A DNA stretch of 64,000 nucleotides from Porphyridium purpureum (Eukaryota): the NCBI GenBank assembly GCA_008690995.1, contig VRMN01000004.1, positions 372,001 to 436,000 on the forward strand, given 5' to 3'. Both the position numbers and the translations under genes were made by a program. The notes under the pieces are model-generated. The model worked only from the letters and a program-made list of their open reading frames with translations, was not told where the DNA came from and searched no databases. The stretch's first letter is position 1. Every line of letters begins with the position of its first letter. Positions 10,527 to 33,978 of the stretch are shown in pieces.

Positions 10527-11287
10527 CCTGTGCGCCTCTGTGCTGCCGGCCTGTTCGCCGCTGCGTTCCTAAATCCCGAGCACCGCTATCACCCACGACG
10601 CGCAAACACACGCTCGAGTACACGCGACCGCACACCGCGCTCCGTTTGTTTCCCGCTCCTGTGTCGTCTCCCCCCCGCCCGCTCCGACCGCGCTCCTTTT
10701 TTCTCTCGAACACACGCACATCCCACAACCACCACCTAACCTTTGACCCACTGCGACATCCCTCGCCACTCGCCCTGCCAATTGAGTCGCCAACTTCGAG
10801 CCGTCATCGCAGGTGTACACTATGAAACCCTAGCTTCACGTTGCGGCATGAACCTTCCGTAGCAAAAACGTGCCGTCTTGATAAGAAGCAAGTGCAGCGG
10901 CGAATCGGTTAACGGTCTACCGACTCATGACGCCACTAAGCCGCAACCGGGAACGGATAAGCAGCGTGGCTGAAAAGTTTGACTACTGATGACGGCTGCG
11001 GGCGTCGGTCAGTGGCTCGACCCCGGAAGAAAGGTGTGCGTCGGTATCGACTCTGCGCATGAAGCGCGACGCACAGCATGGCGTTCACGATGGTTGTGGG
11101 TTCGCAAATGAGTGCTGGTTGGCCAACGTCGTACGTTCAACGCTGGTGTGAAAACCTGGTTTTCGGTTCGCGGTTCACGTCAGGCGCGGCGCAATTTCAA
11201 AGTAACCGTTGTGTCATCAAAGGATAAGTCACTGTACCCCATCCTCGAATCGTTCACTGTACCCACCGTCGCTTTTGAAGCCTGGAT

Positions 11288-12084
11288 CGTGGAATTTTAG
11301 GGTTCCGCCCCGAGAGACGCCGTAGGGTTTTGAGTACAAAACCCTAGAAAGTTCTATGATGAAAGATTGTTCGAGAAGCGTGATGATCTCGGACCTGCGA
11401 AATGTTTGTCATTGTCGTTTTGTGTGACCTTGTGCAAAGGTCAAAGGCCGGCCGAAGCTTCTGGATTCGTTCTTGACGCGCCTTCCCGGCCATTTTTCGG
11501 ATACGTGGCCGGCTGTGGTTGCGAGTTGTGGAACGAATCAAAACCTGTGGTGGAAATTCGTCCTGTTGGAGAAATTTGTTCTCCCGTCCTTGCTGGAAAG
11601 AGCAAGGACGAAGGGTATAAAAGGACGAAGGGGCAAGCTGGTTCCCAGGAATTTCCAGGTCAAGGTAGAAGAAGAGGTAAGGGCAAATAGAATAAAAAGA
11701 GAATTGGTTAGTTGGATTGAGGCAGTCGTTGGAAGACTTGGGTTGGATTTGCGGGAGAGGCACGCTAGCGTGTTGTGCGAGCGGATATCGGTCTGGAGTG
11801 TTTTTAAAAAGGCAGCTGGGGTTTAAACGTACCTTCCATCACCCTTCACTTGTCAAGACCGGTCCACTCCCTCTCGTAGTCCCCTATAAGTTGAATTTTC
11901 TGTCCTCTCTTCCTTTCTAGCCACTTTTCTCTGATTGTCCTGCTTGTCCTTCCGTTCGTTTCGGTGTGTCGGTTCGTCGTCGGTTTGTCAGTTTCCGGGG
12001 TGTGGCGGTTTCCAGTTCCTGTTATCGGTGAAGCGGTCCGGTTTTGTTGATTCGGTTACAAAGCAGAAAGGGAGAAATTCCAAG
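11288..12084 (+). repeat. 5' LTR of copy 1
   Basis: Direct repeat of 16252-17048; one mismatch seen (G12036 vs A17000); TATAAAA at 11616 and AATAAA at 11691. Confidence 0.96.
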
Positions 12085-12102
12085 TGGTATCATCGCCCGG
12101 TT
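12085..12102 (+). other. Primer-binding site (initiator tRNA-Met)
   Basis: TGGTATCATCGCCCGGTT directly abuts the LTR; TGGTATCA core; final TT fits the A-rich T-loop of eukaryotic tRNAi. Confidence 0.85.
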
Positions 12103-12113
12103 GTTTGGAGAAA

Positions 12114-13061
12114 ATGGAAAGCCATGAAATGGAAATGAATGTCCCGCAGGAGAATGCGGCATGGATTGAGGCAGCTAATCAGCTGCATGCGCGCATTGCG
12201 GGACAGGAGATGATGATGGCACAAGTGCAGGAAGCGAATCGTAACCTCCATGAAATGATGCATGTTTTGTTGCGCCAGCAGACCGTGGCGTCTGGGTCTG
12301 GTGACAACGATCGTGCCATGGCCGCGTTAATTGGGCGCAGTTTGAGAAAGTTTGATGGTCAGCGTGACAAGCTCGTTGTCAATGAATGGCTGATGCGAAT
12401 GAAGAGCGACCTGGATATCTGCATGCCCGCAGATGCTTTGGACTCGCAGAAAGTGATTGTTGCAAGTCGCTTTTTCGAGAGGGACGCAGCGCTGCTTTGG
12501 GCAGCTCGTCCGGAGGAGCAGAGAAAGGGCCTTGCAGAGGCCGGATGGGATGCGTTCGCAAACTTCGTGCGCACAGCGTTTGAGCCGCCGCAGGCGCATT
12601 TGACAGCGCGCACCAATCTGTATCAGTTGAAGCAAGGGAAAATGACGGTCGCAGAATTTGAGCAGAATCTCAGGATGACAGCGTTATCAGTTGAAGATGT
12701 GACAGATGCAGAACTGAACACCATCTTCACGCTGGGCTTGAAGGAGAAACTGCGTATTGAGGTGGCCCGTCAGGACACAAGGACCTTGGAAGAATCACTG
12801 AAAGTTGCGTTGGCAGCTGAGCAGGTTGCAAAGTTCGGAGGAGATATGAGTCAAGTGATCAAGAACTCGTCATCGACTCATAGCAGGGCGTTCTCGTCGC
12901 ATTCTGGTAGCGCACCAATGGATTTGGGAGCCATGGACAAGCGGAAGTCTGGCAAGACCAAAGTGAAGTGTTACCATTGTGGAGAACGTGGACACATTAA
13001 GCCCAAATGCCCTAAATTGAAGGAGCGCTTGGCAGGTGGTCCGCCAGAGCCGGAAAACTAA
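12114..13061 (+). CDS. gag: Retrotransposon Gag (copy 1)
   Basis: Retrotrans_gag-like core (LYQLKQGKMTVAEF..F..GLK), APMDLG, CCHC knuckle CYHCGERGHIKPKC. Confidence 0.92.
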   Translation: MESHEMEMNVPQENAAWIEAANQLHARIAGQEMMMAQVQEANRNLHEMMHVLLRQQTVASGSGDNDRAMAALIGRSLRKFDGQRDKLVVNEWLMRMKSDLDICMPADALDSQKVIVASRFFERDAALLWAARPEEQRKGLAEAGWDAFANFVRTAFEPPQAHLTARTNLYQLKQGKMTVAEFEQNLRMTALSVEDVTDAELNTIFTLGLKEKLRIEVARQDTRTLEESLKVALAAEQVAKFGGDMSQVIKNSSSTHSRAFSSHSGSAPMDLGAMDKRKSGKTKVKCYHCGERGHIKPKCPKLKERLAGGPPEPEN

Positions 13062-13113
13062 GACCTCGAGAGCCAAGACAGGAGGAGATCTCGAGGGGAA
13101 TGGAGCCTCCTGT
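13052..13113 (+). other. Predicted -1 ribosomal frameshift signal (slippery heptamer plus H-type pseudoknot)
   Basis: G_GAA_AAC at 13052-13058; stem 1 CCTCGAGA/TCTCGAGG; stem 2 ACAGGAGG/CCTCCTGT. Confidence 0.8.
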
Positions 13114-16100
13114 AATGGGTGTTGTGGAAGGTGTTGCGCACGAGGGTGCGAGGTCAAGGCTCTTCTACAAACATGGGAAAGTGAGTGGTTCAAAAATCGA
13201 CTTCTTGATTGACAGTGGAGCGTCGCATAATTTCCTGGGGTCCCGATTCTTGGACGCAAGCGTAAAGTCCAGTTGCGATGAATGCATGGTCGAGCTTGCG
13301 GGAGGACAGAGAATGAAGGTGCACGGCCCCATTGTGCTTGCGGTGGACCTCGGTTTCTGGATAGGGAACGTCGAGTTTTATATCGGTCCCATTCGTATGG
13401 ATGCCATCTTAGGGTGGAAATGGCTCAAGATGGTGAATCCTAAGATTGATTGGCAGAAGGGACTGATGGAAACGAGGCCCGAGGGGAAGGAAATATGCAC
13501 GTTGGAAAATGTTGAAGAAGTGGTTCCCGAGCTTGACGGGAAAAATCAGAGCGTGGCTGCTTCGGAACACGAGTTGACTCACATGCCTATGCAAAGAGAC
13601 TGTGAGACGTGTGTCGTGGCGAAGATAAAGCGACGCCCGGCCCGAAGGCTGGAGAAAGATGTCAGTGCATTGTCATTCAATGATGAAGTCGGAATTGACT
13701 TGGTGGAGCCTGGGCGAAATGTGAAGTCGGTAGATGGTTCAAAGTTTATTTTGACGCATATCGACAGAGCCACAGGATGGGTGACATTGGCGGGGCTACG
13801 TGCGAAAACCCACACGGCGGTTGCGGACGCTTGGAAAAGTGTGCAAGCCGGGAGAGGATGGCCGAAGGTTTTGCGAACGGATGATGGGAATGAGTTCAAG
13901 GGAGATGTGGGGAGACTGGTGCGTGAACACCTCATAAAGCACGAGGTGGGGATTCCGTACAGGCCAAACAGTCATGCTGAACAGGAGCGGTTTCACCACA
14001 CGCTGAATCAGGGAATCCGTGCGAATCTTGTGCAGGCCGGACTCGGGAAGCGTTGGTTCATGCACGCCGCGCAGCATTTTGCGTTCATGACGAATAGACT
14101 TCACGTGGGCAGGAAGTCTGGAAAGACGCCGTTTGAATTACGACATGGTGAAAAATGGTCGCCGAGAAATCTTAGTTTGCCATTCGGGTGCAAGGTGGTC
14201 TACAAAGATGATCAGCCTGACAATAAGTATGCACCGCGAGGAAAAGTTGGCATTCTCGTCGGCGTTGGAGAGCATCCGATGGCAATTTTGGTGCTTCCTC
14301 GGGATGACTGGACGAGTGAGACCCCAAAAGTAATTCGCACTCAGGATTTTAAGGCATTTACCCATGAGTTCCCTTTAAAGGGAATTGAACGAGAGGTGGT
14401 GAGCCTGAGCCAGCAGGAAGAGTTGCCAGAAGTGGACGAACCATCCGCGGTTGAAGCGGTGCAGGACTTGGATCGTCGTATCGATGCTCTCAGAGCTAGA
14501 GAAGCGGAGCTTGAGAAAGAGATCGAGGCATTGAAAGTGAGAGTGGTTGACGAAGAACGGGCAGCAGGCACGGGTGGTCCAGTGACGATCCCACAGTTGA
14601 ACTTAACGACTTTGCTGAAAACTGGAGCGGCGTTGGCGTCTGAGCAAGGACGAGCCGCGATGGAAAAAGAAGTCAAATCCATGCTGAAATTTGGGGTATG
14701 GGATGAGAGTCCCTTGACGCTGGAGGAGGCCCGGAGGCAACCTGGTGCTCGTTTCGTACGCACACATTTCATTTTCGGTCTGAAATTTGCTGAGATGCCG
14801 GAAGAATTTCGCAAGGTGAAGTGCCGCTTGGTGGCCGGGGGAAACAGGATATGGGGGTCCGATGGAGCTGCGACGAATGACATTTTTGATTATGAGACGC
14901 CTGCTGGTTTGTCAGCTATCCGAATGATAATAGCTGTGGCTGCAATTCTGGGCCTTCAGATTGTTAGTTTCGACATCAGCTCGGCATACCTCCATGCGGA
15001 CCTGTCTGGGCCACCTACGTTTGCATACTTACCGCGTGAAATTTGTGATTCAAAAGACACAGTAGTCAGGCTGAGAAAGGCGCTGTATGGCTTGCCCAGG
15101 AGCGGCTCGGATTTCTCACAAGATGCTCGGAGGAGATTGCAAAAGTTCCAGTGGAAGCTCGTGCATGGTGAAAAGAATGTGTACGTCCGGAGAAATGCTG
15201 CAAGTTCGTCAGTTGCGTTGTTGGCTCTGTACGTGGATGATGGTCTATTAGCCTGTCGAGAGGAGGAACGCCCAGGAATCATCGAAGAATTGAAACAAGA
15301 GTTTCTCATAGAAAAAGCACCAGAACTATTGACGGAAGGAGGATCCTTGAGATTCCTGGGGACGAGCATTTCCCTCAAAAATGGGAGCGTGAGTTTGGCG
15401 AATCAAGAGTATCAAGATGTGGTCATTCGGGAATTTGAGCAGGATATTAGACGCGTATTGCGTGCCGTGAAGTCACCATCTGAGAAGCTAGATGGCGAGG
15501 AAGTTCTGAATTATCAAGTCATCTGGAAGACTTTGAAAGTAAGAGAACACGTCGGGAGGCTGATGTGGCTCGCCAGAACGGTTCGACCTGATATTGCGTA
15601 TGCAGTCGGTATGATTGCCCGGTACGTTGACAAGTGGAATGTGGCAGCAGAAAGGCTGCTCGTACGAGTCGTGCAGTATTTGAAAACACCTCGGGAAGCA
15701 TTGGAGTATCACGTGTTGGGGAATCTCAAGGAAGGCATCAGAGGGGTGAACATTCTTGGATACACGGATGCTGACTTTGCTGGTTGTCCAGAGAGTCGTG
15801 TGTCGACTTCTGGAAGAGCAACGTACTTAGTTGCTGGAGATTACAAGTACCTAGTGGATTGGTCTTCGAGAAAGCAGCGTTTCGTGAGCTCGTCGACTTC
15901 AGAGTCGGAGTTGGCTGCCCTAGAGGAAACTGTGCAACTCTCGTTGTTTCCTGCATTGTCTTTCTTGCGAAGTATACGTGACGGAGAGTTCTCGGTGATT
16001 TTGATGTGTGACAATCAAGCTGTGATGCGAGCAATAGAGATGGGGTACTCGCCAAAGTTGCATCATATGGCGATAACCCGAGCAACAGATTTGGCCTGGT

Positions 16101-16264
16101 TGCATCAGGTGTGCGAAAAGCAGAAACTTGTGAAACTGGCATTTGTGAAGACGGACGAAAATGTGGCGGACTTAATGACCAAGGCCTTATTTCCGGAGGG
16201 CCACATTAAGTGCTGGGAGAAGTTACGCGTCCCTCAGACCGGAAGGAGGAGCGTGGAATTTTAG
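13052..16264 (+). CDS. pol: Pol polyprotein PR-IN-RT-RNaseH (copy 1), in -1 frame relative to gag; first ATG at 13100
   Basis: LIDSGASHNF protease; HHCC and DDE integrase; RVT_2 motifs KCRLVA, DISSAYL, KALYGL, YVDD; Copia RNase H motifs GYTDADFAG, CDNQA, ADLMTKAL. Confidence 0.95.
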   Translation, partial: GKLRPREPRQEEISRGMEPPVMGVVEGVAHEGARSRLFYKHGKVSGSKIDFLIDSGASHNFLGSRFLDASVKSSCDECMVELAGGQRMKVHGPIVLAVDLGFWIGNVEFYIGPIRMDAILGWKWLKMVNPKIDWQKGLMETRPEGKEICTLENVEEVVPELDGKNQSVAASEHELTHMPMQRDCETCVVAKIKRRPARRLEKDVSALSFNDEVGIDLVEPGRNVKSVDGSKFILTHIDRATGWVTLAGLRAKTHTAVADAWKSVQAGRGWPKVLRTDDGNEFKGDVGRLVREHLIKHEVGIPYRPNSHAEQERFHHTLNQGIRANLVQAGLGKRWFMHAAQHFAFMTNRLHVGRKSGKTPFELRHGEKWSPRNLSLPFGCKVVYKDDQPDNKYAPRGKVGILVGVGEHPMAILVLPRDDWTSETPKVIRTQDFKAFTHEFPLKGIEREVVSLSQQEELPEVDEPSAVEAVQDLDRRIDALRAREAELEKEIEALKVRVVDEERAAGTGGPVTIPQLNLTTLLKTGAALASEQGRAAMEKEVKSMLKFGVWDESPLTLEEARRQPGARFVRTHFIFGLKFAEMPEEFRKVKCRLVAGGNRIWGSDGAATNDIFDYETPAGLSAIRMIIAVAAILGLQIVSFDISSAYLHADLSGPPTFAYLPREICDSKDTVVRLRKALYGLPRSGSDFSQDARRRLQKFQWKLVHGEKNVYVRRNAASSSVALLALYVDDGLLACREEERPGIIEELKQEFLIEKAPELLTEGGSLRFLGTSISLKNGSVSLANQEYQDVVIREFEQDIRRVLRAVKSPSEKLDGEEVLNYQVIWKTLKVREHVGRLMWLARTVRPDIAYAVGMIARYVDKWNVAAERLLVRVVQYLKTPREALEYHVLGNLKEGIRGVNILGYTDADFAGCPESRVSTSGRATYLVAGDYKYLVDWSSRKQRFVSSSTSESELAALEETVQLSLFPALSFLRSIRDGEFSVILMCDNQAVMRAIEMGYSPKLHHMAITRATDLAWLHQVCEKQKLVKLAFVKTDENVADLMTKALFPEGHIKCWEKLRVPQTGRRSVEF
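16241..16251 (+). other. Polypurine tract (copy 1)
   Basis: GGAAGGAGGAG immediately before the 3' LTR, inside the pol coding sequence. Confidence 0.85.
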
Positions 16265-17048
16265 GGTTCCGCCCCGAGAGACGCCGTAGGGTTTTGAGTA
16301 CAAAACCCTAGAAAGTTCTATGATGAAAGATTGTTCGAGAAGCGTGATGATCTCGGACCTGCGAAATGTTTGTCATTGTCGTTTTGTGTGACCTTGTGCA
16401 AAGGTCAAAGGCCGGCCGAAGCTTCTGGATTCGTTCTTGACGCGCCTTCCCGGCCATTTTTCGGATACGTGGCCGGCTGTGGTTGCGAGTTGTGGAACGA
16501 ATCAAAACCTGTGGTGGAAATTCGTCCTGTTGGAGAAATTTGTTCTCCCGTCCTTGCTGGAAAGAGCAAGGACGAAGGGTATAAAAGGACGAAGGGGCAA
16601 GCTGGTTCCCAGGAATTTCCAGGTCAAGGTAGAAGAAGAGGTAAGGGCAAATAGAATAAAAAGAGAATTGGTTAGTTGGATTGAGGCAGTCGTTGGAAGA
16701 CTTGGGTTGGATTTGCGGGAGAGGCACGCTAGCGTGTTGTGCGAGCGGATATCGGTCTGGAGTGTTTTTAAAAAGGCAGCTGGGGTTTAAACGTACCTTC
16801 CATCACCCTTCACTTGTCAAGACCGGTCCACTCCCTCTCGTAGTCCCCTATAAGTTGAATTTTCTGTCCTCTCTTCCTTTCTAGCCACTTTTCTCTGATT
16901 GTCCTGCTTGTCCTTCCGTTCGTTTCGGTGTGTCGGTTCGTCGTCGGTTTGTCAGTTTCCGGGGTGTGGCGGTTTCCAGTTCCTGTTATCGGTGAAGCGA
17001 TCCGGTTTTGTTGATTCGGTTACAAAGCAGAAAGGGAGAAATTCCAAG
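16252..17048 (+). repeat. 3' LTR of copy 1
   Basis: Repeat of 11288-12084. Confidence 0.96.
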
Positions 17049-17237
17049 TGGATTAGGGGGAAAGGGTGTACAGTGTGTGTGTGCTGGCATCGTGTACAGT
17101 GGTGAGGACGACAAAGGAATGAAACTGAGTGGGAGAAGGCAAGAGCGTAGGAAGAGAGAGAGAGGGAGAGGGAGAAAGGGAAAGGAGTTTGGTTGGGTGT
17201 GGGGTGTGTGGAAGGAAGAGGCGGAGGAGCGAGCGGG

Positions 17238-27385: not shown

Positions 27386-27789
27386 CCTACTCCTTTGCAA
27401 CTCTGACCCTCGTCTCCTCCACACTCACTCACCGATACTCCCACTCTCCCTCAATCTTCCCCTCTGCTTACCTCACGTCAAACTTGGAGCTAAAGTATCG
27501 AAGTCCTCCTTCCCACTCGCCTCGCTCAAGAATCCCCAAAACATGCCCCGAACGTGATCCCTATAAAATCCAACCCGTTTTGTTACAAAACAACTCAAGC
27601 TCCTGCCAAGCCCGCGCCAGTTTGCTACTTATCTCCGCGCTCGACCTCGCACGAGATGTGCACTGTACCTTTGTCGCCCCCACAACCCCAAAACGCCAAA
27701 ACGCACAACCAGTCGCACCCCAGTTCTCTCCACTGTACCCCCCCTCTTTCTCCTTCGTTTCGAGTTGTCCAAACGGGTTCGAACGTCAG

Positions 27790-28586
27790 CGTGGAATTTT
27801 AGGGTTCCGCCCCGAGAGACGCCGTAGGGTTTTGAGTACAAAACCCTAGAAAGTTCTATGATGAAAGATTGTTCGAGAAGCGTGATGATCTCGGACCTGC
27901 GAAATGTTTGTCATTGTCGTTTTGTGTGGCCTTGTGCAAAGGTCAAAGGCCGGCCGAAGCTTCTGGATTCGTTCTTGACGCGCCCTCCCGGCCATTTTCC
28001 GGATACGTGGCCGGCTGTGGTTGCGAGTTGTGGAACGAATCAAAACCTGTGGTGGAAATTCGTCCTGTTGGAGAAATTTGTTCTCCCGTCCTTGCTGGAA
28101 AGAGCAAGGACGAAGGGTATAAAAGGACGAAGGGGCAAGCTGGTTCCCAGGAATTTCCAGGTCAAGGTAGAAGAAGAGGTAAGGGCAAATAGAATAAAAA
28201 GAGAATTGGTTAGTTGGATTGAGGCAGTCGTTGGAAGACTTGGGTTGGATTTGCGGGAGAGGCACGCTAGCGTGTTGTGCGAGCGGATATCGGTCTGGAG
28301 TGTTTTTAAAAAGGCAGCTGGGGTTTAAACGTACCTTCCATCACCCTTCACTTGTCAAGACCGGTCCACTCCCTCTCGTAGTCCCCTATAAGTTGAATTT
28401 TCTGTCCTCTCTTCCTTTCTAGCCACTTTTCTCTGATTGTCCTGCTTGTCCTTCCGTTCGTTTCGGTGTGTCGGTTCGTCGTCGGTTTGTCAGTTTCCGG
28501 GGTGTGGCGGTTTCCAGTTCCTGTTATCGGTGAAGCGGTCCGGTTTTGTTGATTCGGTTACAAAGCAGAAAGGGAGAAATTCCAAG
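27790..28586 (+). repeat. 5' LTR of copy 2
   Basis: No difference from 32754-33550 seen by eye. Confidence 0.96.
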
Positions 28587-28615
28587 TGGTATCATCGCCC
28601 GGTTGTTTGGAGAAA

Positions 28616-29563
28616 ATGGAAAGCCATGAAATGGAAATGAATGTCCCGCAGGAGAATGCGGCATGGATTGAGGCAGCTAATCAGCTGCATGCGCGCATTG
28701 CGGGACAGGAGATGATGATGGCACAAGTGCAGGAAGCGAATCGTAACCTCCATGAAATGATGCATGTTTTGTTGCGCCAGCAGACCGTGGCGTCTGGGTC
28801 TGGTGACAACGATCGTGCCATGGCCGCGTTAATTGGGCGCAGTTTGAGAAAGTTTGATGGTCAGCGTGACAAGCTCGTTGTCAATGAATGGCTGATGCGA
28901 ATGAAGAGCGACCTGGATATCTGCATGCCCGCAGATGCTTTGGACTCGCAGAAAGTGATTGTTGCAAGTCGCTTTTTCGAGAGGGACGCAGCGCTGCTTT
29001 GGGCAGCTCGTCCGGAGGAGCAGAGAAAGGGCCTTGCAGAGGCCGGATGGGATGCGTTCGCAAACTTCGTGCGCACAGCGTTTGAGCCGCCGCAGGCGCA
29101 TTTGACAGCGCGCACCAATCTGTATCAGTTGAAGCAAGGGAAAATGACGGTCGCAGAATTTGAGCAGAATCTCAGGATGACAGCGTTATCAGTTGAAGAT
29201 GTGACAGATGCAGAACTGAACACCATCTTCACGCTGGGCTTGAAGGAGAAACTGCGTATTGAGGTGGCCCGTCAGGACACAAGGACCTTGGAAGAATCAC
29301 TGAAAGTTGCGTTGGCAGCTGAGCAGGTTGCAAAGTTCGGAGGAGATATGAGTCAAGTGATCAAGAACTCGTCATCGACTCATAGCAGGGCGTTCTCGTC
29401 GCATTCTGGTAGCGCACCAATGGATTTGGGAGCCATGGACAAGCGGAAGTCTGGCAAGACCAAAGTGAAGTGTTACCATTGTGGAGAACGTGGACACATT
29501 AAGCCCAAATGCCCTAAATTGAAGGAGCGCTTGGCAGGTGGTCCGCCAGAGCCGGAAAACTAA
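28616..29563 (+). CDS. gag: Retrotransposon Gag (copy 2)
   Basis: Protein identical to copy 1. Confidence 0.92.
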   Translation: MESHEMEMNVPQENAAWIEAANQLHARIAGQEMMMAQVQEANRNLHEMMHVLLRQQTVASGSGDNDRAMAALIGRSLRKFDGQRDKLVVNEWLMRMKSDLDICMPADALDSQKVIVASRFFERDAALLWAARPEEQRKGLAEAGWDAFANFVRTAFEPPQAHLTARTNLYQLKQGKMTVAEFEQNLRMTALSVEDVTDAELNTIFTLGLKEKLRIEVARQDTRTLEESLKVALAAEQVAKFGGDMSQVIKNSSSTHSRAFSSHSGSAPMDLGAMDKRKSGKTKVKCYHCGERGHIKPKCPKLKERLAGGPPEPEN

Positions 29564-32500
29564 GACCTCGAGAGCCAAGACAGGAGGAGATCTCGAGGGG
29601 AATGGAGCCTCCTGTAATGGGTGTTGTGGAAGGTGTTGCGCACGAGGGTGCGAGGTCAAGGCTCTTCTACAAACATGGGAAAGTGAGTGGTTCAAAAATC
29701 GACTTCTTGATTGACAGTGGAGCGTCGCATAATTTCCTGGGGTCCCGATTCTTGGACGCAAGCGTAAAGTCCAGTTGCGATGAATGCATGGTCGAGCTTG
29801 CGGGAGGACAGAGAATGAAGGTGCACGGCCCCATTGTGCTTGCGGTGGACCTCGGTTTCTGGATAGGGAACGTCGAGTTTTATATCGGTCCCATTCGTAT
29901 GGATGCCATCTTAGGGTGGAAATGGCTCAAGATGGTGAATCCTAAGATTGATTGGCAGAAGGGACTGATGGAAACGAGGCCCGAGGGGAAGGAAATATGC
30001 ACGTTGGAAAATGTTGAAGAAGTGGTTCCCGAGCTTGACGGGAAAAATCAGAGCGTGGCTGCTTCGGAACACGAGTTGACTCACATGCCTATGCAAAGAG
30101 ACTGTGAGACGTGTGTCGTGGCGAAGATAAAGCGACGCCCGGCCCGAAGGCTGGAGAAAGATGTCAGTGCATTGTCATTCAATGATGAAGTCGGAATTGA
30201 CTTGGTGGAGCCTGGGCGAAATGTGAAGTCGGTAGATGGTTCAAAGTTTATTTTGACGCATATCGACAGAGCCACAGGATGGGTGACATTGGCGGGGCTA
30301 CGTGCGAAAACCCACACGGCGGTTGCGGACGCTTGGAAAAGTGTGCAAGCCGGGAGAGGATGGCCGAAGGTTTTGCGAACGGATGATGGGAATGAGTTCA
30401 AGGGAGATGTGGGGAGACTGGTGCGTGAACACCTCATAAAGCACGAGGTGGGGATTCCGTACAGGCCAAACAGTCATGCTGAACAGGAGCGGTTTCACCA
30501 CACGCTGAATCAGGGAATCCGTGCGAATCTTGTGCAGGCCGGACTCGGGAAGCGTTGGTTCATGCACGCCGCGCAGCATTTTGCGTTCATGACGAATAGA
30601 CTTCACGTGGGCAGGAAGTCTGGAAAGACGCCGTTTGAATTACGACATGGTGAAAAATGGTCGCCGAGAAATCTTAGTTTGCCATTCGGGTGCAAGGTGG
30701 TCTACAAAGATGATCAGCCTGACAATAAGTATGCACCGCGAGGAAAAGTTGGCATTCTCGTCGGCGTTGGAGAGCATCCGATGGCAATTTTGGTGCTTCC
30801 TCGGGATGACTGGACGAGTGAGACCCCAAAAGTAATTCGCACTCAGGATTTTAAGGCATTTACCCATGAGTTCCCTTTAAAGGGAATTGAACGAGAGATG
30901 GTGAGCCTGAGCCAGCAGGAAGAGTTGCCAGAAGTGGACGAACCATCCGCGGTTGAAGCGGTGCAGGACTTGGATCGTCGTATCGATGCTCTCAGAGCTA
31001 GAGAAGCGGAGCTTGAGAAAGAGATCGAGGCATTGAAAGTGAGAGTGGTTGACGAAGAACGGGCAGCAGGCACGGGTGGTCCAGTGACGATCCCACAGTT
31101 GAACTTAACGACTTTGCTGAAAACTGGAGCGGCGTTGGCGTCTGAGCAAGGACGAGCCGCGATGGAAAAAGAAGTCAAATCCATGCTGAAATTTGGGGTA
31201 TGGGATGAGAGTCCCTTGACGCTGGAGGAGGCCCGGAGGCAACCTGGTGCTCGTTTCGTACGCACACATTTCATTTTCGGTCTGAAATTTGCTGAGATGC
31301 CGGAAGAATTTCGCAAGGTGAAGTGCCGCTTGGTGGCCGGGGGAAACAGGATATGGGGGTCCGATGGAGCTGCGACGAATGACATTTTTGATTATGAGAC
31401 GCCTGCTGGTTTGTCAGCTATCCGAATGATAATAGCTGTGGCTGCAATTCTGGGCCTTCAGATTGTTAGTTTCGACATCAGCTCGGCATACCTCCATGCG
31501 GACCTGTCTGGGCCACCTACGTTTGCATACTTACCGCGTGAAATTTGTGATTCAAAAGACACAGTAGTCAGGCTGAGAAAGGCGCTGTATGGCTTGCCCA
31601 GGAGCGGCTCGGGTTTCTCACAAGATGCTCGGAGGAGATTGCAAAAGTTCCAGTGGAAGCTCGTGCATGGTGAAAAGAATGTGTACGTCCGGAGAAATGC
31701 TGCAAGTTCGTCAGTTGCGTTGTTGGCTCTGTACGTGGATGATGGTCTATTAGCCTGTCGAGAGGAGGAACGCCCAGGAATCATCGAAGAATTGAAACAA
31801 GAGTTTCTCATAGAAAAAGCACCAGAACTATTGACGGAAGGAGGATCCTTGAGATTCCTGGGGACGAGCATTTCCCTCAAAAATGGGAGCGTGAGTTTGG
31901 CGAATCAAGAGTATCAAGATGTGGTCATTCGGGAATTTGAGCAGGATATTAGACGCGTATTGCGTGCCGTGAAGTCACCATCTGAGAAGCTAGATGGCGA
32001 GGAAGTTCTGAATTATCAAGTCATCTGGAAGACTTTGAAAGTAAGAGAACACGTCGGGAGGCTGATGTGGCTCGCCAGAACGGTTCGACCTGATATTGCG
32101 TATGCAGTCGGTATGATTGCCCGGTACGTTGACAAGTGGAATGTGGCAGCAGAAAGGCTGCTCGTACGAGTCGTGCAGTATTTGAAAACACCTCGGGAAG
32201 CATTGGAGTATCACGTGTTGGGGAATCTCAAGGAAGGCATCAGAATGGTGAACATTCTTGGATACACGGATGCTGACTTTGCTGGTTGTCCAGAGAGTCG
32301 TGTGTCGACTTCTGGAAGAGCAACGTACTTAGTTGCTGGAGATTACAAGTACCTAGTGGATTGGTCTTCAAGAAAGCAGCGTTTCGTGAGCTCGTCGACT
32401 TCAGAGTCGGAGCTGGCCGCCCTAGAGGAAACTGTGCAACTCTCGTTGTTTCCTGCATTGTCTTTCTTGCGAAGTATACGTGACGGAGAGTTCTCGGTGA

Positions 32501-32766
32501 TTTTGATGTGTGACAATCAAGCTGTGATGCGAGCAATAGAGATGGGGTACTCGCCAAAGTTGCATCATATGGCGATAACCCGAGCAACAGATTTGGCCTG
32601 GTTGCATCAGGTGTGCGAAAAGCAGAAACTTGTGAAACTGGCATTTGTGAAGACGGACGAAAATGTGGCGGACTTAATGACCAAGGCCTTATTTCCGGAG
32701 GGCCACATTAAGTGCTGGGAGAAGTTACGCGTCCCTCAGACCGGAAGGAGGAGCGTGGAATTTTAG
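29554..32766 (+). CDS. pol: Pol polyprotein (copy 2); first ATG at 29602; frameshift signal 29554-29615
   Basis: Differs from copy 1 at three residues (V>M, D>G, G>M). Confidence 0.95.
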   Translation, partial: GKLRPREPRQEEISRGMEPPVMGVVEGVAHEGARSRLFYKHGKVSGSKIDFLIDSGASHNFLGSRFLDASVKSSCDECMVELAGGQRMKVHGPIVLAVDLGFWIGNVEFYIGPIRMDAILGWKWLKMVNPKIDWQKGLMETRPEGKEICTLENVEEVVPELDGKNQSVAASEHELTHMPMQRDCETCVVAKIKRRPARRLEKDVSALSFNDEVGIDLVEPGRNVKSVDGSKFILTHIDRATGWVTLAGLRAKTHTAVADAWKSVQAGRGWPKVLRTDDGNEFKGDVGRLVREHLIKHEVGIPYRPNSHAEQERFHHTLNQGIRANLVQAGLGKRWFMHAAQHFAFMTNRLHVGRKSGKTPFELRHGEKWSPRNLSLPFGCKVVYKDDQPDNKYAPRGKVGILVGVGEHPMAILVLPRDDWTSETPKVIRTQDFKAFTHEFPLKGIEREMVSLSQQEELPEVDEPSAVEAVQDLDRRIDALRAREAELEKEIEALKVRVVDEERAAGTGGPVTIPQLNLTTLLKTGAALASEQGRAAMEKEVKSMLKFGVWDESPLTLEEARRQPGARFVRTHFIFGLKFAEMPEEFRKVKCRLVAGGNRIWGSDGAATNDIFDYETPAGLSAIRMIIAVAAILGLQIVSFDISSAYLHADLSGPPTFAYLPREICDSKDTVVRLRKALYGLPRSGSGFSQDARRRLQKFQWKLVHGEKNVYVRRNAASSSVALLALYVDDGLLACREEERPGIIEELKQEFLIEKAPELLTEGGSLRFLGTSISLKNGSVSLANQEYQDVVIREFEQDIRRVLRAVKSPSEKLDGEEVLNYQVIWKTLKVREHVGRLMWLARTVRPDIAYAVGMIARYVDKWNVAAERLLVRVVQYLKTPREALEYHVLGNLKEGIRMVNILGYTDADFAGCPESRVSTSGRATYLVAGDYKYLVDWSSRKQRFVSSSTSESELAALEETVQLSLFPALSFLRSIRDGEFSVILMCDNQAVMRAIEMGYSPKLHHMAITRATDLAWLHQVCEKQKLVKLAFVKTDENVADLMTKALFPEGHIKCWEKLRVPQTGRRSVEF

Positions 32767-33550
32767 GGTTCCGCCCCGAGAGACGCCGTAGGGTTTTGAG
32801 TACAAAACCCTAGAAAGTTCTATGATGAAAGATTGTTCGAGAAGCGTGATGATCTCGGACCTGCGAAATGTTTGTCATTGTCGTTTTGTGTGGCCTTGTG
32901 CAAAGGTCAAAGGCCGGCCGAAGCTTCTGGATTCGTTCTTGACGCGCCCTCCCGGCCATTTTCCGGATACGTGGCCGGCTGTGGTTGCGAGTTGTGGAAC
33001 GAATCAAAACCTGTGGTGGAAATTCGTCCTGTTGGAGAAATTTGTTCTCCCGTCCTTGCTGGAAAGAGCAAGGACGAAGGGTATAAAAGGACGAAGGGGC
33101 AAGCTGGTTCCCAGGAATTTCCAGGTCAAGGTAGAAGAAGAGGTAAGGGCAAATAGAATAAAAAGAGAATTGGTTAGTTGGATTGAGGCAGTCGTTGGAA
33201 GACTTGGGTTGGATTTGCGGGAGAGGCACGCTAGCGTGTTGTGCGAGCGGATATCGGTCTGGAGTGTTTTTAAAAAGGCAGCTGGGGTTTAAACGTACCT
33301 TCCATCACCCTTCACTTGTCAAGACCGGTCCACTCCCTCTCGTAGTCCCCTATAAGTTGAATTTTCTGTCCTCTCTTCCTTTCTAGCCACTTTTCTCTGA
33401 TTGTCCTGCTTGTCCTTCCGTTCGTTTCGGTGTGTCGGTTCGTCGTCGGTTTGTCAGTTTCCGGGGTGTGGCGGTTTCCAGTTCCTGTTATCGGTGAAGC
33501 GGTCCGGTTTTGTTGATTCGGTTACAAAGCAGAAAGGGAGAAATTCCAAG
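32754..33550 (+). repeat. 3' LTR of copy 2
   Basis: Repeat of 27790-28586. Confidence 0.96.
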
Positions 33551-33978
33551 GTCAGCCATACAAGTACAGTATCTACACTGTACACAGATCCTCATTGACA
33601 GGCCAGGTTTGAAAGGGAAGGCAGAAAGGAAAAAGGTACAGCGCGTGTGAGGCTTGTCACGTGGAATAAGTAAATTTATCACGGCGCGAATCAGACCGTA
33701 CCTCCAAGGAAGGTACGATCAAACGGGTCGTTTTTGGAATGAGATCGATCGCAGATCCGTTGAAGGGGTTTGGATGAAACGGTGATGGTTGGATGGGTGG
33801 TGAGTTGTAGTGGCGGTGGTGGTGAGCGGTAAGTAGGAAGGAAGAGAGGGAATACTCGGTGTGCACGGCGGTGATTGGGAAGCGTGGATCGGTTGGGTGT
33901 AAGGAAGAGAGAAGTTGCGGAAGGAGCGGTTGTGCGGCGAGTTGGAGGCGGTCTGCGGCGGCGGCGGTGGTGGGTACG

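Follow-up and report, generated by a model that had tools for sequence, protein, structure and literature searches.

A candidate -1 frameshifting signal in a Copia-order retrotransposon of Porphyridium purpureum with a Ty3/Gypsy-type gag and protease

The 64-kb stretch of Porphyridium purpureum DNA analysed here (the window) is gene-dense eukaryotic DNA and carries an LTR retrotransposon of 5761 bp in two copies, at 11288-17048 and 27790-33550. The element is likely a Gypsy-Copia hybrid, in which a gag and protease of Ty3/Gypsy type precede an integrase (IN), reverse transcriptase (RT) and RNase H (RH) of Copia type. The sequence of its gag-pol junction makes it quite probable that a minority of ribosomes slips by -1 at the heptamer G_GAA_AAC, before a predicted pseudoknot, to make Gag-Pol. 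A wider reading is proposed tentatively, with the balance tipping slightly against it: an active hybrid lineage in which a Gypsy capsid and protease with a -1 knot would drive a Copia IN-RT-RH, and in which the integrase would insert untrimmed blunt ends, leaving CG...AG termini.

The retrotransposon is young and intact. The two copies differ at 14 of 5761 bases, the LTR pairs differ at one site in copy 1 and at none in copy 2, and both ORFs are intact. A recent LTR expansion has been reported for Porphyridium purpureum, in an account whose available text does not describe the families involved (PMC6811547). The features of the element are as follows.

11283-11287, + strand: left target-site duplication TGGAT (right copy at 17049-17053)
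11288-12084, + strand: 5' LTR, 797 bp, with ends CG...AG
12085-12092, + strand: primer-binding site TGGTATCA, abutting the LTR
12114-13061, + strand: gag, 315 aa, with a Ty3/Gypsy-type capsid and one CCHC knuckle
13052-13058, + strand: slippery heptamer G_GAA_AAC
13064-13113, + strand: predicted H-type pseudoknot (stem 1, 13064-13071/13089-13096; stem 2, 13078-13085/13106-13113)
13016-16264, + strand: pol, in the -1 frame
DSG at 13211, + strand: protease in pol, Ty3/retroviral type, motif assigned by eye
HHCC at 13568, D 13694, D 13877 and E 13982, + strand: integrase in pol, DDE assigned by eye
from 15227, + strand: YVDD motif of the RT in pol, assigned by eye
from about 15761, + strand: RNase H in pol, assigned by eye
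16241-16251, + strand: polypurine tract, abutting the 3' LTR
16252-17048, + strand: 3' LTR, one difference from the 5' LTR
27790-33550, + strand: second full copy, with identical LTRs and target duplication GTCAG (27785-27789 and 33551-33555)
29554-29615, + strand: frameshift cassette of copy 2, identical to that of copy 1

The gag-pol junction

The cassette had been noticed in a sequence-only reading of the window, and all the coordinates described for it hold. The end of gag was given there as CCG GAA AAC TAA; the heptamer GGAAAAC indeed occupies 13052-13058 and is followed directly by the stop TAA (13059-13061). The gag and pol ORFs overlap, with pol in the -1 frame. This frame is open through the junction, as had been claimed, but it opens at 13016 and not at the heptamer, and the ATG at 13100, which had been called the pol ATG, lies within pol and is simply its first Met. 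The two stems proposed for an H-type pseudoknot form Watson-Crick pairs at all 16 of 16 positions, with loops of 6, 3 and 9 nt, and the spacing of 5 nt after the heptamer is correct (spacer TAAGA). The usual spacer of -1 cassettes is 5-9 nt (PMC5009743), and the start of the predicted stable structure lies within this range here. The description of the heptamer as a variant of X_XXY_YYZ is in line with the listing of G_GA among the X_XX variants (PMC5009743). The identity of the copy 2 cassette is likewise borne out; it is no evidence of selection, since so few bases differ between the copies as a whole. Slip site, spacer and pseudoknot together conform to the textbook -1 pattern, and a sister family keeps the frame and the register and, by the residues of its gene models, probably the stem-2 pairing, which supports the reading of the junction as a frameshift signal.

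The pseudoknot is far beyond chance. In an exhaustive scan of the 64 kb it is the sole 8+8 H-type knot, found in the two copies and as their minus-strand mirror. When the 100 nt that follow the heptamer are shuffled with dinucleotides preserved, an 8+8 knot arises in 0 of 20,000 trials; shuffling of the whole element yields one in 1 of 300. Read in the gag frame, gag also has no slip-like heptamer other than GGAAAAC. An Rfam scan gave two chance matches and no frameshift family. Contigs of two labelled RNA runs, both from one study, end at 13068 and 13095, and depth is lower over the 5' part of pol; no weight is given to this here. The palindrome CTCGAG lies in each arm of stem 1 (13065-13070 and 13090-13095) and could also pair between two RNA copies.

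In the proposed mechanism most ribosomes would stop at the UAA and release the 315-aa Gag. The predicted pseudoknot would stall ribosomes at the heptamer, where in the remaining ribosomes tRNA-Glu would move from GAA to GGA and tRNA-Asn from AAC to AAA. The slipped product would read ...PEPEN/LRPREP... and yield a Gag-Pol of about 1383 aa, and the slip would set the Gag excess that the particle needs. Read-through of the stop was considered and rejected, because another stop soon follows in the gag frame.

The -1 cassettes of retroviruses and of the Ty3/Gypsy-derived genes PEG10 and PNMA3 resemble the present one in heptamer, 5-nt spacer and H-type knot, PNMA3 being described with a classical heptamer and an H-type knot (PMC5009743). 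The present cassette differs from such retroviral and Gypsy-derived cassettes in carrying G_GAA_AAC instead of G_GGA_AAC, and in being followed by a pol with Copia order and an RVT_2-type RT. It likely works in the same way as a retroviral or Gypsy cassette. Among known frameshifting elements, Ty1 shifts by +1, and so does Drosophila 1731, a Copia element. The modes of expression described for Copia elements are a single ORF, splicing, Ty1 frameshifting or stop read-through (PMC5580714). The element 1731 is also given as a frameshifting element in PMC5009743, whose summary of Gao et al. 2003, in the text available, gives no breakdown of the -1 cases into superfamilies. In the available text of the literature searched, which included PMC2806351, PMC6317226, PMC5445492, PMC2774666, PMC6875170, PMC3587641 and PMC5443660 and left the survey of Gao et al. 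2003 itself and Repbase outside the comparison, neither a -1 knot nor a Gypsy-type gag was found in any Copia element.

Gypsy-type front and Copia-type back

The domains of pol follow the Copia order PR-IN-RT-RH, and the RT matches RVT_2 with 67.6 bits against a cut-off of 31.6; the Ty3/Gypsy definition, an RVT_1 RT with the integrase last, does not describe the element. With the canonical Ty1/Copia elements (Tnt1, copia, EVD, Ty1 and Tca2) it shares this order, the RVT_2-type RT, the ADxMTK end of RNase H and a 5-bp target duplication, but its RT-RNase H and its integrase fall into a separate clade. In midpoint-rooted FastTree trees built without Gypsy sequences, the RT-RNase H groups in a clade that separates from canonical Copia at support 1.0 (a tree of the window's sequence and 81 of 90 proteins, nine having been dropped for short cover), and the integrase lies outside the canonical Copia group with support 0.991 (53 of 53 proteins).

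The front end is of a different type. Gag scores above cut-off for two Pfam families, Retrotrans_gag and Ty3_capsid; Pfam matches to Retrotran_gag_2, Pol_BBD and gag_pre-integrs are absent from the element. Among solved structures the best whole-domain sequence match of gag is dArc1, and its Atlas neighbours are Retrotrans_gag clusters. The predicted fold of gag, from a model of mediocre quality (pLDDT 66.7, pTM 0.35), is nearest to dArc, Ty3 and PEG10, with dArc1, Ty3, dArc2 and PEG10 ranking first and a Copia capsid at rank 24. The protease matches Asp_protease_2 and gag-asp_proteas and not Pol_BBD, exceeding one Pfam cut-off only when run as an isolated piece. The element is not a full member of either superfamily.

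Three more Porphyridium families (P0051, P0053 and P0218/P0060) have the Ty3-type front end in common with the element. A protease C-terminal motif of the ILG-x-x-W type occurs in five Porphyridium families; six aligned relatives from outside Porphyridium, members of the same IN/RT clade, carry the Copia-like protease motif LLS-x-G-QL. Since these deeper relatives of the clade have the Copia-like motif, the distribution suggests a gain of the Gypsy module within the Porphyridium branch. There, a divergent Copia lineage would have exchanged its native front end for a Gypsy-type gag-protease module, which probably brought the -1 signal; a Copia-order element would then have a -1 signal because its gag and protease are of Ty3/Gypsy type. 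Families P0051 and P0053, which have the same Ty3-type front, are modelled as single proteins, so that the slip may have arrived with the swap or later. In P0218/P0060 gag and pol are separate models. No donor of the Gypsy module was found with the present trees, which are without Gypsy rows.

Several related families show further peculiarities. In P0208, P0209 and P0210, gag, protease and integrase are of canonical Copia type and the RT-RNase H is of the divergent clade. They form a hybrid of a second kind within the species, and their mixed domains imply that modules have been exchanged in this genome. The Ty3-fronted family of P0218, P0060 and P0219 has, besides separate gag and pol models, a fused model from which the zinc knuckle is missing. 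Between integrase and RT, P0054 has a Myb-like segment (Pfam E 3.3e-5, about the cut-off), which is weaker in P0210 and P0206 and discernible by eye in the sister family, family B; the window family has a short charged stretch at this place. The Myb-like segment is possibly a targeting domain.

Two known groups invite comparison. Gmr1-like elements are Ty3/Gypsy elements with a Copia domain order and a Gypsy-type RT. They resemble the present element in mixing Gypsy and Copia traits, but here RT, RNase H and integrase are all of Copia type and only gag and protease are of Gypsy type. The GalEa clade has been reported from Porphyridium cruentum (PMC3587641, PMC5445492). By the features described in the available accounts, GalEa shares with the element a red-algal host genus, YVDD, ADxxTK, a 5-bp duplication and a primer-binding site directly after the LTR, and is characterised by TGT...CA ends, one ORF, the primer-binding site TGGTAGCAGAGC and the motifs KARLVA and TRPDI. 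The element differs from this description in its CG...AG ends, its two ORFs, another primer-binding site and the motifs KCRLVA and VRPDI.

A sister family and alternative readings of the junction

Family B is a cluster of 17 members with 72% identity to the window family in gag and 66% in pol. In 3 of 3 aligned gags (those of the window, of family B at 72% and a third gag at 60%) the protein ends in EN-stop after a variable linker. Family B contigs span the junction region in 807 letters, against 762 in the window, in 4 of 8 runs, no single bridging contig being present in the other four. The difference of 45 means that the -1 frame is kept in family B; the length of 807 is obtained both in a labelled RNA-Seq run and in a run guessed to be DNA. 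By hand arithmetic, subtraction of 266 letters on the gag side and 515 on the pol side leaves 26, and the distance from the heptamer to the S of SRG is 32 nt in family B as in the window family. The database models of family B also require AG at +11/+12, as found in the window.

Pairing in family B was deduced from the -1-frame residues of gene models, not from junction DNA. On this basis five of the eight stem-2 pairs are forced and the other three are allowed. Of the eight stem-1 pairs the residues force one and permit six, in five of which they leave the 5' side undefined; the innermost pair cannot form. The family B replacements R>S and V>G fall on a single stem-2 pair, for which the reading with fewest changes is A-U to C-G or U.G. 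At 80% likeness, no family B sequence in the eight runs matched onto the window junction. Scans of the gag alignment against viral, metagenome and genome contigs and of the pol alignment against viral contigs gave no matches; the pol alignment found six metagenome loci at 24-31%, none informative for the gag-pol junction. In a distant relative (L003:1048-1050) one stop separates a long proline-rich ORF from a pol that continues in its frame, which would reflect either read-through or decay.

The slip might be real and its stimulator a long knot-free hairpin, formed by stem 2 and its extensions, or a switch between hairpin and knot. Such a hairpin is the predicted minimum (ViennaRNA; -24.7 kcal/mol, z -2.64), starts 8 nt past the heptamer and is at least as stable as the knot by a rough estimate of the latter (-21.8 kcal/mol). 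This reading is nevertheless unlikely: it leaves the perfect 8-bp stem 1 unexplained, and the residues of family B force a G.G mismatch in the hairpin extension while stem 2 is kept, which favours the knot.

The slip would be dispensable if Pol were made separately, either by splicing or from ATG 13100 or 13115, reached by reinitiation or on a subgenomic RNA. Most database models can be read in this way, as Met 13100 is the start of 14 of the 15 listed family-A proteins and an intron joins gag to pol in 14 of the 15 listed family-B models. Met 13115 is conserved in family B, and a GT at 12963 with the AG at 13083-13084 would permit an in-frame splice. All these models are, however, predictions, and the family-B introns come in two conflicting forms, each in 7 of the 15 listed models; both forms remove the zinc knuckle, and one creates a stop in the window family. 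The CTRAY branch motif is absent at the junction, and the ATG at 13100 is replaced by Thr in family B. Splice joints sought in the contigs of the eight runs were not found, in a material of which two runs are labelled RNA and in which rare splice forms are lost on assembly into contigs. Free Pol is normally not packaged, which also counts against its separate synthesis. Neither heptamer nor knot would be explained, and a separate Pol is considered improbable.

Finally, the frame break might be a mutation in a former single gag-pol ORF, the copies then being non-autonomous. A single ORF is usual for Copia elements (PMC5580714), and the models of two sister families are single proteins. Against this stand the LTR differences of just 1 and 0 and the two intact ORFs, as well as the identical break in a family at 66-72% identity, beside a knot that is far beyond chance. 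The presence of the break in family B largely refutes a mutation, which is barely credible as an explanation. Slippage at the heptamer before the predicted pseudoknot is the preferred reading.

Element ends and significance

Only CG...AG termini fit the 5-bp target duplications, in 2 of 2 copies; TG...CA termini do not. A perfect 8-bp inverted repeat, with a TG start and a CA end, sits 2 nt inside the LTR termini. Contigs from other insertions run out of the element at identical positions (loose ends 17048, 12084 and 16251), and the outer, CG...AG ends adjoin both the primer-binding site and the polypurine tract. Retroviral integrases cut two bases off the cDNA ends. The simplest reading of the CG...AG ends is that blunt cDNA was inserted here with no trimming. 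The primer-binding site TGGTATCA presumably matches initiator tRNA-Met; tRNA genes sought for comparison do not occur within the 64-kb window.

Plant non-TGCA LTR elements offer a partial parallel, as Copia elements among them combine unusual termini with 5-bp duplications (10.1101/137141, PMC5659011). In the available text of the plant survey the first T is invariable (10.1101/137141), and AA...CA termini are added by another plant paper (PMC5659011). The present element differs from these in that both ends deviate, with an intact TG...CA 2 nt inside.

The motif CACTGTAC occurs 17 times in the window, against 0.94 expected. In 7 of the 17 cases it lies no more than 130 bp from one of the four element ends (11230, 11255, 17068, 17094, 27661, 27731 and 33576), and it is present too in the flank of another insertion; it may reflect a target preference or be a mere intergenic motif. 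The window also contains a 147-nt inverted repeat with 72% complementarity (18092-18238/22738-22884).

These results have practical consequences for annotation. Database gene models bridge junctions of this kind with introns that are absent from the contigs, and LTR finders based on TG...CA would misplace the ends of the element. If the proposed reading of the CG...AG ends is true, they are a natural example of cDNA integrated with untrimmed ends. As a whole the element is a strong and compact candidate on which -1 frameshifting could be studied in red algae. It is usual to regard the two big LTR superfamilies as distinct all the way from gag to RNase H, each balancing Gag and Pol in its own way. 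If the proposed origin of the element is true, capsid, protease and recoding signal can move between the superfamilies as one working module.
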